Source: Eledone cirrhosa (lineage: Eukaryota). Taken from it: a DNA stretch of 64,000 nucleotides. The DNA lies in NCBI GenBank assembly GCA_964016885.1, contig OZ024764.1:1612001-1676000 (forward strand), given 5' to 3'. A program made the translations under genes and the position numbers. Below are positions 4,827 through 52,441 of this stretch, one piece after another. The notes beneath the pieces are model-generated. The model was not told the DNA's origin. It saw only the letters and a list, made by a program, of their open reading frames with translations, and ran no database searches. Position 1 is the stretch's first letter, and every line of letters begins with the position of its first letter.

Positions 4827-4862
4827 TCTTCTGATGAAGGACCAGCATCCGAAACGTCAAGA
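4827..4862 (+). ncRNA. Minimal type I hammerhead ribozyme (family B) within a ~150-220 bp dispersed repeat
   Basis: tctt-CTGATGA-a-gga/tcc stem II-GAAA-c-GTC-aaga; helix I tctt/aaga; palindromic ACGT stem III typical of Penelope-type minimal HHRs. Confidence 0.75.
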
Positions 4863-4952
4863 CCCTCTTCCTGCTATATCAAGCGTTAAACTAATATATT
4901 CCTTCCATATACTGTACAGATTGTGTTGTTATTTATGTTTACCTTTTACATA

Positions 4953-5196
4953 CATCATCATCATCATCATCATCATCATCATACATCCGCTTTTCCCTGC
5001 TTGCAAGGGTGGGACGGGCCCTATTCGGCGCAGCATCTCTCCACTCGTCACGGTCCTTCGTCATCTCCACCGTGAGCTTCAGCGATCTGAGGTCTGTTCC
5101 CACCACCTCCGCCCATGTTTTTCGTGGTCTACCTCTAACACGTCTTCCTTCAACTGGCATTTCCTGGCACTTCTTCACCCATCGGTCATCCTCCAT
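4953..5196 (-). mobile_element. RTE family B 3' fragment
   Basis: Encodes [28 protein letters not shown]...; (ATG)n tail; matches 38277-38520. Confidence 0.9.
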
Positions 5197-5231
5197 ATAT
5201 ACATATAATATACATATAAAGTAAAAGTATA

Positions 5232-5348
5232 TAATAATAATAATAATAATGAAATTATTGTGTACAGTGCTCAGGTGCACTACAACTCATCAAAGGTGCA
5301 TGTATAGTACATAGAATAATGTACAAATGTCAGGAAAGTGAACAGTGT
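5232..5348 (-). mobile_element. CR1-like LINE 3' tail
   Basis: Near-identical to 59252-59360 and 19547-19655, which abut a CR1-type ORF2 C-terminus; (ATT)n tail. Confidence 0.85.
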
Positions 5349-5769
5349 ATATACATATAAAGTACAAATATATACATATAAAGTACAAATATATACATAT
5401 AAAGTAAAAATATATACATATAAAGTAAAAATATATACATATAAAGTACAAATATATACATATAAAGTACAAATATATACATATAAAGTAAAAATATATA
5501 CATATAAAGTAAAAAATATATACATATAAAGTAAAAAATATATACATATAAAGTAAAAATATATACATATAAAGTACAAATATATACATATAAAGTAAAA
5601 ATATATACACATAAAGTAAAAATATATACATATAAAGTAAAAATATATACATATAAAGTAAAAATATATACATATAAAGTACAAATATATACATATAAAG
5701 TAAAAATATATACATATAAAGTACAAATATATACACATAAAGTAAAAATATATACATATAAAGTAAAAA
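5349..5769. repeat. 21-bp minisatellite ATATATACATATAAAGTAMAA (about 20 units)
   Basis: Direct periodicity. Confidence 0.9.
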
Positions 5770-6458
5770 TTAGAAAGAGAAGCCAGGACTATCCATCATC
5801 AGTGGTCTACTAGCTGTCATAGGTATTTCTTCGCAGTAAAGACCAGATACCTCAGGCTGGCGCGATACAATAACTAAAATAAGTTATTGGGATAAAAAGA
5901 ATTGGGTGGAGAAAGAGAGACAGGTGACCAAATACGAATGGTGAGGCAACGTAAAGAGAGGAAAAAATGAGAAAAATCAAGTCAATCATTCATTTTGAAC
6001 ATAAGAACTTGCGAATATTGACGAGGAGACAAAAGACACATCTTAACCGTGCGAAAAGTGAGCAAGAAATGAATTTCGCACGGTGTGGGACAATGGAGGA
6101 AGTGAGAGATAGGGTGAGTAGCAGAGGGGGTGAGTAAGAGGGAGAAGGAGAGAGAAAGAGGATAGAAGTAAGGGAAAGAATTATTAAGTGAAAGCCAGAA
6201 TTCCTGTGCTCATCTGCGGGTGTCCAGGAAAATTCATACCTTTCACTTCAAAGGATCTAAGAAGACTGAGAGATATGCTGTTATAGATATGCAGTGCCTA
6301 GCGCGTCTCATACGCATGCCGCTAAAATTAGCAGCTGGGTTTATGAGACTAAAGTTAGCTCAACACGGCTCGGAAAGTTTCCCTTCTTTGAACTATTTAA
6401 TTGTAAAAGACTATTTTGAGTTTATAACTCAATCTATGATATATATATATATATATAT

Positions 6459-6612
6459 AATGATAGGGACCCCAGTCCTATCATCTCATTTCTACAGCTA
6501 AGTAAACTGGTGCAATGTGAAATAAAGTGTCTTGCTCAAGGAAACAACACATCACCCAGTCTGAGAATTGAACTCACAACCTTTCGATTGCAAGGCCAAT
6601 GCTCTAACCACT
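6459..6612 (-). mobile_element. Partial tRNA-derived CORE-type SINE (family A)
   Basis: Matches the head/core of 52725-53060. Confidence 0.85.
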
Positions 6613-49829: not shown

Positions 49830-50490
49830 TCCAATGAACTGGCAGTAGAATCGGTGGAGCATAAGATATCATGCTATGTAGCATGGAGTTACGTCCCTTT
49901 ACGTTCTGAGTTGACAGGCGTTGGATTGGCAGTATCGGTAGAGGGTTGGACGCCATGCTTTGACGCATAGAGTTTCGGCCCTTGCCATTCTGAGTTCAAA
50001 TCCCGCCGAGGTTAACTTTGCCTTTCATCCTTACGGGGTCGATAGAATAAAGTACCACCAGTAATGCACTGGGGTAATTGCTGGCCTTGTGCCAAAAGTA
50101 GAAACAATTATTATCCAATGAACTGGCAGTAGAATCGGTGGAGCGTAAGATACCGTGCTATGTAGCATGGAGTTACATCTCATTACAGTCTGAATTCAAA
50201 TTCCGCTGAGGTTAACTTTGCATTTCATTCTTACAGGAGTCGATAAAATAAAGTACCAGTAATACACTGGCGTTAATTTGGTTGACTTTCCCCTCTCCGA
50301 AAATTGCTGGACTTGGGCCTATACTAGAATAAGTGTTGTGGATTGGCAGAATCGGTAGAGCGAAAGATACTGTGCTTTGTAGCATGGAGTTACGGCCCTT
50401 TACGTTATGGGTTCAAATCTCGCCGAGGTTAGCTTTGCCTTTCATCCTTACGTGGTTGATAAAATAATGTACCAGTAATGTACTGGGGCC
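49830..50490 (+). mobile_element. Cluster of 3-4 tandem or nested family C SINEs
   Basis: Repeated heads tggcag(t)a.tcggt.gag and the central domain. Confidence 0.75.
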
Positions 50491-51501
50491 GATTTAACCC
50501 TTTAGCATTTATACCAGCATATCTGGCCACAACAATCCCTCTCTGATGGTAACGCCTAGCTTCTGAAGCCCTTTAGGTCATCCCTTCACCTTCAACTTTC
50601 CAACACCCTCCTTAGAACCTTTACTCTCCCTAGCAAGACTCTTTTCTACAACAATCCCTCTCTGATGGTAACTCCTAGCTTCTGAAGCCCTTTAGGTCAT
50701 TTCTTCACCTTCAACTTCCCAACACCCTCCTTAGAATCCTTACTCTCCCTAGATATAATTACATAAATGTTCAGAATATATGTACAAATGACATACAGGA
50801 TTAAATATATGAGTAACTTTGTAGAAATAACTATTTACAGGGACAAATGCAAGTTTAGAATCCAGGACCTTGGGATTGGAAAAGAAATTGCATGTTTTAG
50901 CAACATAACTGCGATAGGAAGTGCATGTAAGTAAACTTTTAAAAGATACACACACACATTATATATATATATATATATATATATATATATATATATATAT
51001 ATATACAAGCAAATTATAAATGTAAACATGTAAGTATGTTTTTGAAACGGTGCGCGAGTTTGAAAATTAGAAATTAGAAATTATAAGCTTTCACCGTATT
51101 TTAGACTAAAGAAATTTTTAGCCTGAGAGTGGGGTTTATAACCCTCGGAGAAATGGAAAAAAATGAGTGTTGCCGTACATATATATATATATATGCAGAG
51201 GTTGTATTTAATTTGTTGGGATTCAACAAGCTTAAACATTTTTATAACTGATATAAAGCACTCAACAAGTTAGTGGAGTAAATATACAATATATTAATAA
51301 ATGGAAACTATATTTATAAAACCATATTTATTTTATTATATATATTTCAAGGGCTACCAAGGCAAATTATGGTGCGCTTTCATCAAATAAAATACAGATT
51401 TGTTTTATAAATAAATATTGACATACCCTATCCAGGAAGCTCCAACCATTAAGGTTGTATTTTTTCCGGGTATGTCAATATTTATTTATAAAACAAATCT
51501 G

Positions 51502-51567
51502 TATTTTATCTGATGAAAGCGCACCATAATTTGACTTGGTTGCCCTTGAAATATATATAATAAAATA
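51502..51567 (+). ncRNA. Type I hammerhead; diverged antisense copy at about 51329-51395
   Basis: tattttat-CTGATGA-aag...ctt-GAAA-tatata-TA-ataaaata; fold-back arms about 51283-51428 / 51467-51612. Confidence 0.8.
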
Positions 51568-51729
51568 AATATGGTTTTATAAATATAGTTTCCATTTATT
51601 AATATATTGTATATATATATATATTTTCCAAGAGATGTCAACATGAATGGACCTGTTATTTTTATCTAAAGACATTTATTTCCAATTCCACCCCACCCGT
51701 CCCTTCAATCTATCTCATTTCTCATTCTT

Positions 51730-51765
51730 TCTTCTGATGAAGGACTAGGGTCTGAAACGTTAAGA
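51730..51765 (+). ncRNA. Minimal hammerhead family B
   Basis: tctt-CTGATGA...GAAA-c-GTT-aaga. Confidence 0.6.
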
Positions 51766-52405
51766 CCCTCTTCCTGCTATATCAAGCGTTAACCCTTCTA
51801 TATACTGTACTGATTGTGTTGTTATTTCTGTTTACCTTTTACATACATACACACATACATACATATATATGGTGTGGAAAGGAACATATATATATACATA
51901 CATACAAACAAATATATACATACATATATACATACATATACATATATACATACACATACATATATATACATACATATATATATATAGATACATACATATA
52001 TATATATAGATACATACATATATATACATACACATACATACATATACACATATATACATACATAGATACATACATACATATACATATATACATATACATA
52101 GATACATACATATATAGATATATATATATATATATATATACATATCCCCCTATTCTCTACACAGTTGTCTGTAATTCTGTAACAATTTCAGTCTATTCTG
52201 TTTATTGCTAGAAAACTCTCATGAGGAAACATGTAATAAGTAAGATATAACTGATGAAAGTGTATATATATATATATATATACACACACACACACACACA
52301 TATGTATGTATTGTCAACATAAACGGACCTGTTATTTTTATCTAAAGATATTTTTTTCCAATTCCACCCCACCCGTCCCCTCAATCTATCTTATTTCTCA
52401 TTCTT

Positions 52406-52441
52406 TCTTCTGATGAAGGACTAGGGTCCGAAACGTTAAGA
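52406..52441 (+). ncRNA. Minimal hammerhead family B
   Basis: tctt-CTGATGA-a-ggac/gtcc-GAAA-c-GTT-aaga. Confidence 0.7.

Follow-up and report, generated by a model that had tools for sequence, protein, structure and literature searches.

Type I hammerhead ribozyme motifs at the 3′ ends of probable Penelope-like elements in a 64-kb window of the Eledone cirrhosa genome, with candidates for a permuted variant

Hammerhead motifs of the window

The DNA stretch analysed here, referred to as the window, comprises 64,000 nucleotides of the genome of Eledone cirrhosa (assembly GCA_964016885.1, contig OZ024764.1, positions 1,612,001 to 1,676,000). It contains 17 intact type I hammerhead ribozyme motifs belonging to ten families, A–J. 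[quoted passage not shown]

The hammerhead motifs of the window are real. A strict descriptor, which requires CUGANGA, GAAA, NUH and the stems I–III, found 13 motifs, compared with a mean of 0.05 and a maximum of 1 in 200 dinucleotide shuffles. A relaxed descriptor, which accepts a stem II of up to 130 nt and the core CYGANGA, found the 17 intact motifs, compared with a mean of 0.08 and a maximum of 1 in 60 block shuffles. The relaxed descriptor was loosened after the sites had been inspected; 74 regions elsewhere in the genome then served as an out-of-sample test. An earlier descriptor without short stem III or long stem II had found only 6 motifs and was replaced. The window has a GC content of 36% and consists mainly of (TA)n and minisatellites. 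In the C–G–S block order (CUGANGA, GAAA, cleavage site), 15 of the 17 cores are canonical and two carry the U4C variant.

A first-pass annotation of the window, which was made from the sequence alone, had proposed a dense collection of type I hammerheads. All sites named in it are real, and most of its coordinates correspond to the first base of helix I. This is exactly the case for 4827, 14329, 25695, 26385, 32968, 42999, 43277, 45871, 51502, 51730 and 52406, while the motif placed at 13837 starts at 13835. The sites 25535, 45816 and 46121 are minus-strand copies, as proposed. The two copies regarded as mutated are indeed so: the one at 46993(−) carries GAAA>AAAA (47024), and the one at about 51329(−) carries C3>U (51386). 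The CTGANGA core assigned to the sites 14329 and 43277 is actually CCGAUGA (U4C). The pair 45482(−)/45551(+) and the permuted candidates 5802(−) and 42282(−) had been overlooked. The annotation counted at least eight unrelated families; ten families were found, and they are not all unrelated, since the families C and G share 73% identity over 113 nt and the families B, I and J have common helix I/III ends. Stem III had been described as often palindromic. It is a perfect palindrome in 10 of the 17 motifs, not in all. The excess over shuffled sequence, which the annotation had named as a decisive check, is clear at 17 motifs against 0.08.

A scan with the Rfam models, also proposed in the annotation, gave no window match at the gathering score, including the model RF00163 (Hammerhead_1). 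The window motifs are not filed under RF00163 because none of them reaches this threshold. The 150 matches listed in an e-value scan of the window were miRNA-like matches on TA repeats. The sole hammerhead family that passes RF00163 (18 of 74 scored matches) is another one, which is represented by the loci L001–L010 and does not occur in the window. Four relaxed-core matches, at 18037, 25180, 47232 and 52225, were treated as likely chance.

Penelope-like elements linked to the motifs

In each family the 3′ ends are fixed, 20–200 nt beyond the predicted cut site and for the most part in (TA)n, while the 5′ ends vary. A (TA)5 tract is located within 300 nt downstream of 85 of 93 motifs sampled elsewhere in the genome and of 15 of the 17 window motifs; these are raw rates in a TA-rich genome. 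Among the 93 sampled motifs, 52 stand alone, 32 are accompanied by an inverted partner and 17 by a tandem one, with 8 having both. The inverted pairs are fold-backs in which each arm has its own fixed end point, the two points lying about 60–100 nt apart; this layout has been described for PLEs (PMC8557442). The traits of PLEs with an endonuclease (EN+ PLEs) are all present: 5′ truncation, partial tandems corresponding to the pseudo-long terminal repeat (pLTR), an inverted 5′ copy and a one-sided tail.

The first-pass annotation had suggested extending each family in the 5′ direction in order to find an open reading frame (ORF) with a PLE reverse transcriptase (RT) and GIY-YIG endonuclease. 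Such an ORF, with RT and C-terminal GIY-YIG upstream of the hammerhead, was found directly for the families A, B, D, F, G and H. The family I is linked through an ORF start downstream of the hammerhead, and the families J and C through relatives. In family A, the GIY-YIG region lies upstream of the hammerhead in 5 of 20 loci, with the RT and an A-DKG motif further up, a layout that we take from its motifs to be Poseidon-like. A Hydra-type endonuclease (EN) is located 381–388 nt upstream of the hammerhead in 6 of 12 loci of family D, 1043–1083 nt upstream in 2 of 12 loci of family F, and 1007–1068 nt upstream in family B. The families H and G form units of inverted copy, ORF and hammerhead in the loci L303 and L304. 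An ORF start lies 178–239 nt downstream of the hammerhead in the families I and H (231–239 nt in family I). The family J is 79–82% identical to sisters that flank Hydra-type ORFs, and a C-like family flanks a Hydra-type ORF in the locus L049.

The ORFs of the D, F, H, I, B, J-like and C-like copies contain, in part or whole, the motifs RWR/RWK, DKT, CxCX5C, CxxC and CxH, and RW[K/R], DKT, CxCX5C, CxxC and CxH are given as diagnostic of the Hydra clade in the available text of PMC8557442. Pfam searches with the PLE proteins returned GIY-YIG (E=0.0012 and 0.029) and RVT_1 (9e-5), with five of the eight proteins giving no relevant match, and the Atlas look-up returned RT-like clusters only. Judged by their ORFs, six families directly and two through relatives appear to be of the Hydra type, and one of the Poseidon type. 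The large radiation of hammerhead-bearing Penelope-type retroelements that the annotation had envisaged is supported.

In the families H, I and D, the sequence that follows the hammerhead continues to where the ORF of the next unit starts, and it is therefore regarded as the 5′ leader of the element. In the locus L348, the tail of family H runs past the end of the long arm directly into the ORF start. The insertion ends are located between the cut site and the ORF, as would be the case if a circular or tandem template were copied.

Although the Hydra-type families concerned are unrelated, their long-arm tails all start with a similar bulged hairpin (CTC...GAGYRC) just past the short-arm end. 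In the window these tails are located at 25757–25895 (B), 45596–45700 (G), 45728–45822(−) (H) and 51195–51337(−) (J). The hairpin is a candidate RT-priming or recognition signal.

The features of the window are as follows; the element types given are putative and refer to the ORFs described above. Besides the cuts given in the list, cleavage at H17 is predicted at 14445 (D), 25757 (B), 26503 (E), 45596 (G) and 45915 (H).

4805–4971 (+): 3′ end of a family A element (Poseidon-type PLE) with a minimal hammerhead at 4827–4862, stem III ACGU, predicted cut after 4858
5785–6165 (−): element with a permuted (S–G–C order) hammerhead candidate; motif about 5793–5865, predicted cut after 5846
13762–13939 (+): family C, a relative of family G; hammerhead 13835–13902, inverted partial copy 5′ of the hammerhead
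14060–14565 (+): family D (Hydra-type); U4C-core hammerhead 14329–14448, whose stem II region measures 95 nt, and a long tail in inverted orientation at about 14060–14281
14622–14834 (no strand): 3′ halves of family G arranged as a fold-back palindrome, with stem III and tail but without CUGANGA
25490–25895 (no strand): family B (Hydra-type) fold-back pair; hammerheads 25535–25605(−) and 25695–25765(+)
25920–26602 (+): family E, whose retrozyme-like unit of 695 nt is non-coding, present here at slightly less than one monomer; hammerhead 26385–26507
32896–33093 (+): family A copy; hammerhead 32968–33003
42222–42765 (−): permuted hammerhead candidate element, whose family forms tandems of about 615 nt elsewhere; motif about 42274–42345, predicted cut after 42326
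42778–43098 (+): family F (Hydra-type); hammerhead 42999–43051
43260–43527 (+): family D copy; U4C-core hammerhead 43277–43395
45398–45700 (no strand): family G (young, Hydra-like) fold-back pair; hammerheads 45431–45488(−) and 45544–45603(+)
45730–45940 (no strand): family H (Hydra-type) fold-back pair; hammerheads 45815–45867(−) and 45871–45921(+)
45976–46398 (−): family I (Hydra-type); hammerhead 46115–46177
46899–47119 (−): family A copy with a broken core (GAAA>AAAA)
51195–51624 (no strand): family J fold-back pair, sister of Hydra-type elements; intact hammerhead 51502–51567(+), C3>U copy with the core at 51386(−)
51624–51849 (+): family A copy; hammerhead 51730–51765
52314–52537 (+): family A copy; hammerhead 52406–52441
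53100–53890 (+): broken GIY-YIG relic (53261–53890) with a Neptune/Nematis-like linker; the 3′ tail of the same element lies inverted in front of it at 53100–53264(−), and the hammerhead of its family is lost here

Two further features were observed. A long perfect palindrome without a hammerhead core at 44018–44096 is possibly another fold-back remnant. The 987-aa open frame at 27617–30580(+) encodes an AP-endonuclease, an RT and an inserted PHD finger (Pfam); it belongs to a nearly intact RTE-like LINE that is unrelated to the hammerheads.

GIY-YIG relic and retrozyme-like units

The first-pass annotation regarded the GIY-YIG relic, which it placed at 53290–53880, as the likely type of autonomous partner of the hammerhead-bearing elements. 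The relic (53261–53890) is a broken GIY-YIG region (Pfam E=0.0012) with a Neptune/Nematis-like cysteine linker, and the segment 53100–53264 is the inverted tail of the same element. Elsewhere in the genome, the 3′ untranslated region of the relic family carries a different hammerhead 325–390 nt behind the EN. Its 5′ half is kept in 9 of 14 loci and its full score in 5 of 14, and no copy is present in the window. The CUGAUGA at 53274(−) is spurious, made by the inversion junction (53261–53274) of the relic's tail. Since the relic's family has its own hammerhead and the window families are mostly of the Hydra type and one of the Poseidon type, as far as their ORFs indicate, the relic is a neighbour of the window hammerheads and not their partner.

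The family E shows another organization. It is a non-coding unit of 695 nt, with a longest stop-free stretch of 88 codons, which occurs in seamless partial tandems. Two hammerheads were found in 2 of 15 loci, and no PLE ORF was found in these 15 loci. The unit shows strong self-pairing (−178 kcal/mol compared with −147 ± 6 kcal/mol for 15 shuffles). The 5′ ends are not piled up at the cut site, where only 1 of 22 upstream partial copies starts. Non-LTR retrozymes are laid out as non-coding tandem units, each with a single hammerhead of type I, and by its sequence organization the family E behaves as a retrozyme-like element. Two tandem hammerhead arrays elsewhere are likewise retrozyme-like: 311-nt units in two opposed arms at L037:6165–7877 and units of about 482 nt at L039:456–3366.

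These units raise the question of whether the majority of the families could be non-autonomous retrozymes, with the Neptune-like element at 53261–53890 as the one on which they depend. The 695-nt family E with its seamless partial tandems and the 311- and 482-nt arrays are in line with this explanation, and an ORF may no longer be needed for the spread of some short fold-back families. However, seven of the ten families (A, B, D, F, G, H and I) run into RT/EN ORFs of their own, none of which is that of the relic, the relic family carries a different hammerhead, and 52 of the 93 sampled motifs are solo. A predominance of retrozymes is thus unlikely. The retrozyme reading of the annotation holds for family E and not for the main class of elements.

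Structure and decay of the hammerheads

The pairing of stem II was assessed in 20 distinct stem II regions of the B/I/J type, collected with a pattern blind to pairing. The offsets 1, 2, 4, 5 and 6 are paired in all 20 sequences, with A-U/G-C and C-G/U-A swaps, so the covariation across copies that the annotation had asked for is present. Offset 3 is never paired, and offset 7 is paired in 12 of 20; the mean folding z-score is −2.6. The helices I, II and III with helix I open, as in a type I hammerhead, are supported by this covariation. The U4C change found in family D is a known natural, weaker hammerhead variant (PMC3088659).

In the predicted monomer fold, stem III is absent in family A, comprises 3 bp in the families C and G and 4 bp in family H, and the intermolecular stem III duplex is favourable in all families but E. 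A requirement for dimers is therefore predicted for some families, not for all: by this prediction family A would cut solely as a dimer, and the families G and H as monomers. The description of the motifs as minimal hammerheads that cleave as dimers, given in the first-pass annotation, fits family A and does not fit the others, which have stem II regions of up to about 100 nt and a stem III of 3–4 bp.

The difference rates of core and flank positions among the copies are 0.024 and 0.021 in family E, 0.015 and 0.018 in family D, and 0.023 and 0.028 in family F. The core positions vary like the flanks, and most copies therefore look like fossils. This pattern fits ribozymes that are selected in active lineages and decay after insertion.

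Several observations weigh against the interpretation of the motifs as largely inert ends of mainly Hydra-type PLEs. The cores of family A vary less than the flanks (2/239 versus 75/3346). All four decay tests (A, D, E and F) drew on top-scoring copies only, and they are weak because the copies were chosen by similarity. The constrained hammerhead fold lies 0.5–5.8 kcal/mol above the minimum free energy in all 17 motifs, and stem II is closed by A-U rather than G-C in several B/J-type motifs; for these two reasons the cleavage activity may be low. The families C and J are linked to ORFs through relatives only, with no directly linked ORF in ten loci of the exact J subfamily found in the window (L340–L347 and neighbours). 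The Hydra label of family G refers to 31–42% similarity in tblastn, and CxCX5C was missed by the motif search in the locus L304. In a family G array with three hammerheads 2.86 kb apart (L298, C12:49768501–49778500), no PLE protein match was found between the hammerheads. Finally, the sampled regions lie at fixed round-number positions on large contigs and are not random draws.

The variation data also bear on the possibility that the host keeps dispersed copies as functional RNA, through cleavage, circular RNA or double-stranded RNA (dsRNA) hairpins for ADAR editing, and that their density reflects selection. The very high load, the presence of about one third of the motifs in fold-back pairs, which would form long dsRNA if transcribed, and the slightly lower variability of family A cores could be explained in this way. 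This explanation is nevertheless very improbable: no excess core conservation was found in the families E, D and F, mutated copies adjoin intact ones, and truncation bias alone accounts for the pile-up.

Genome-wide load

The assembly comprises 2,995,841,428 bases. An exon of a host gene in the locus L198 shares 90% identity with the myotubularin-related protein 8 of Octopus bimaculoides and 39–48% with other molluscs, so that the host is an octopus or closely related octopod. It was sampled with 79 ten-kb regions, of which the 5 adjoining the window were set aside, leaving 74 regions with 739.6 kb. The relaxed descriptor found 93 motifs in this sample, or one per 7.95 kb, compared with 0–1 in shuffles; 40 of the 74 regions contain no motif. 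The motifs of the window and the sample cluster into 33 groups. The first-pass annotation gave roughly one motif per 4 kb for the window. This density is correct at one per 3.8 kb, yet it does not set the window apart, since the whole genome is alike: compared with the sampled density, the motifs of the window are only about two times as dense as the genome average (by resampling, P=0.051 for ≥17 motifs in 64 kb).

In the whole genome, sequence patterns without a pairing requirement were counted, each with a reversed-pattern control. The B/I/J-type pattern gave 70,466 matches, the exact 49-mer of family H 5,487, the pattern of family A 5,414 and the exact 57-mer of family G 124, all with a reversed control of 0, and a U4C family outside the window gave 7,611 (reversed control 1). 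The directly counted matches total 89,102. The last-named family is a second U4C-core family, with the core CCGAAGA and the stem III strands ACAAUUGU/ACAGCUGU; it occurs at L034, L039, L059 and L197 and precedes a Hydra ORF start in the locus L338.

An origin of the motifs by chance, in repeat DNA that is rich in AT and prone to hairpins, can practically be dismissed, even though the descriptor was relaxed after the window had been viewed and the CUGAUGA at 53274(−) proved to be a junction artefact, because shuffles yield 0.08 motifs per window, reversed controls 0–1 against thousands of matches, and the motifs show covariation and a fixed position relative to PLE ORFs.

The bootstrap range of the sample corresponds to 251,000–514,000 motifs per genome. 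The B/I/J pattern occurs 19 times in the sample, compared with 17.4 expected matches, which gives a ratio estimate of 345,000 motifs. By extrapolation, the genome is likely to hold about 350,000 type I hammerhead motifs. The available text of published studies gives 120,000 motifs for the axolotl and about 5,000 for a mussel (PMC7229834), and minimal motif counts of about 2,000 for Schistosoma, about 4,000 for the coelacanth and about 9,000 for Xenopus (PMC4209133). The estimated load exceeds every published per-genome count compared here, a comparison that is not like for like because the descriptors differ.

Permuted hammerhead candidates

The two orphan CUGAUGA sites 5802(−) and 42282(−) are 72% alike and were tested for a non-circularly permuted (SGC) order. 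A descriptor with the order cleavage site–GAAA–CUGANGA found exactly two motifs in the window (0 in 40 shuffles) and five in the 740-kb sample, compared with 0–1 per shuffle. The family pattern has 9,745 matches in the genome (control 0), and the family of 42282 forms tandems of about 615 nt.

Covariation was assessed in an alignment of 21 permuted copies, including the poorly aligned L199, which was kept. In this alignment 94.3% of the cells are paired, compared with 28–44% in slid controls, and two-sided changes occur in 8 of 22 pairs, a value not reached in any of 500 shuffles; the relatedness among the copies can inflate the pairing figures. The number of further pair types is not above that of the shuffles (273/500). 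The proportion of paired cells is 96.8% in stem I, 95.2% in stem III and 93.5% in the helix joining the stems I and II. Two-sided changes were found in three pairs of stem I, three pairs of the joining helix and none of stem III (alignment A1). Between the blocks C and G, stem II is a single covarying pair, 10.1–11.1 (U-A 9, U-G 6, A-U 2, C-G 2, other 2), and the partner of the strand on the GAAA side is instead an extra strand located upstream, with which it forms a 4-bp helix. The block order, the stems I and III and the joining helix agree with the type-SGC hammerhead, and a stem II of several pairs is missing. Because stem II is one pair accompanied by the extra-strand helix, the motifs are not filed as HRIMA-1/SGC. 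The locus L199 (6684–6790, minus strand) contains a second, fully diverged permuted family with an 8-bp stem III and a 7-bp joining helix.

The same permuted architecture, in different letters, was read by eye in the published 3′ end of Naiad_Obim, with the stem III AUGGU/ACCAU, the stem I CUGCCC/GGGCAG, the extra-strand helix GACACC/GGUGUC and the joining helix CGGAU/AUCCG. In the available text of Craig et al. (PMC8557442), no canonical hammerhead is given for Naiads, and Naiad_Ovul is marked 'HHR_half_core'. No ORF joined to the two permuted families of the window was found in 30 loci, and their dependence on Naiads is therefore putative. The permuted motifs are predicted to be self-cutting. 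We consider it slightly more probable than not that the genome carries the largest load of ribozyme motifs seen in any genome so far (about 350,000 type I hammerheads in dozens of PLE families) together with an active permuted hammerhead, in which stem II is rebuilt from an extra strand and which occurs in about 10,000 copies as well as at the 3′ end of Naiads.

Proposed mobilization cycle

We propose the following cycle, modelled on Cervera and de la Peña 2014 (PMC4209133, available in part). A tandem copy of the element would be transcribed, and two hammerheads would cut out one unit, acting as a dimer in those families whose stem III is short and palindromic. The excised unit would probably be circularised. 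The GIY-YIG endonuclease would nick (TA)n, and the RT would start just 3′ of the cut site and copy back across the junction. It would meet the hammerhead first and usually halt within a few hundred bases, so that ribozymes would pile up far faster than ORFs. The family E and the family of 42282 may ride the same PLE machinery without coding for it, and the two permuted motifs may do the same job for Naiad-related elements.

Comparison with known systems

The scale, about one motif per 8 kb across 3 Gb with no window motif at the Rfam threshold, makes the genome a natural library: hundreds of thousands of copies, which belong to young and to old families, are available for comparing monomer and dimer cutting and for studying PLE movement via circular RNA. 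The order of cut site, fixed insertion ends and ORF start can be read directly here. The fold-back pairs may be a large source of dsRNA in an animal group known for heavy A-to-I editing. If the permuted hammerhead of Naiads is true, Naiads could no longer be regarded as elements without hammerheads, and the SGC permutation would be extended to animal genomes.

In literature searches, the load and the permuted variant were not found in the papers reached, nor was any report of hammerhead copy numbers in cephalopods, most subscription papers being outside reach. A search combining hammerhead, Penelope and octopus gave PMC8557442 as the only paper on the topic, as did one on self-cleaving ribozymes of octopus genomes, the words ribozyme and hammerhead occur 0 times in the octopus/cephalopod repeat papers PMC13282606 and PMC8967140, and a search on SGC and Naiad gave no animal report among the papers listed. 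The comparisons below refer to the available parts of the cited sources.

The window motifs resemble the PLE pLTR hammerheads (PMC4209133) in the type I topology, the extra base after CUGANGA, the short palindromic stem III, the many heterogeneous families per genome with mostly solo copies from truncated PLEs, and the opposite-strand pairs 100–700 bp apart. They differ in the estimated number (about 350,000 compared with 2,000–9,000 found by a narrower descriptor), in many stem III regions of 8–16 nt and stem II regions of up to 115 nt, and in the U4C core of the two family D copies of the window and of another family. With the Hydra clade of C-terminal EN+ PLEs (Craig et al. 2021, PMC8557442) they share the motifs RW[K/R], DKT, CxCX5C, CxxC and CxH, canonical hammerheads, (TA)n targets, the inverted 5′-truncated copy and the tail on one arm only. 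In contrast to the single octopus Hydra entry in the supplement of Craig et al., Hydra-1_Obim of Octopus bimaculoides, many more families were found here; the tails measure about 60–100 nt instead of 30–40, and family H reaches about 3.7 kb, compared with less than 3 kb.

Like the metazoan non-LTR retrozymes (PMC7229834; bioRxiv 10.64898/2026.07.22.740005), the family E and the family of 42282 are non-coding tandems with one hammerhead per unit and PLE-like ends. Their units of 695 and about 615 nt are longer than the typical 150–450 nt, and most window families, unlike retrozymes, are remnants of coding elements. The record of 120,000 motifs in the axolotl (PMC7229834) concerns a genome about ten times larger. 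Hammerheads in Penelope pLTRs, the Hydra clade and retrozymes are thus a system already known; the load is unusual and the permuted variant is new-looking. The latter shares with type-SGC/HRIMA-1 (Eckert et al. 2023, PMC10085705) the block order cleavage site–GAAA–CUGANGA, both of the stems I and III, and an additional helix by which the stems I and II could be joined. In that study the type was found only outside the genomes of known organisms, whereas the motifs described here are genomic, animal and repeat-borne, with a stem II that is a single covarying pair between the blocks C and G and a GAAA-side strand whose partner is an additional strand upstream.

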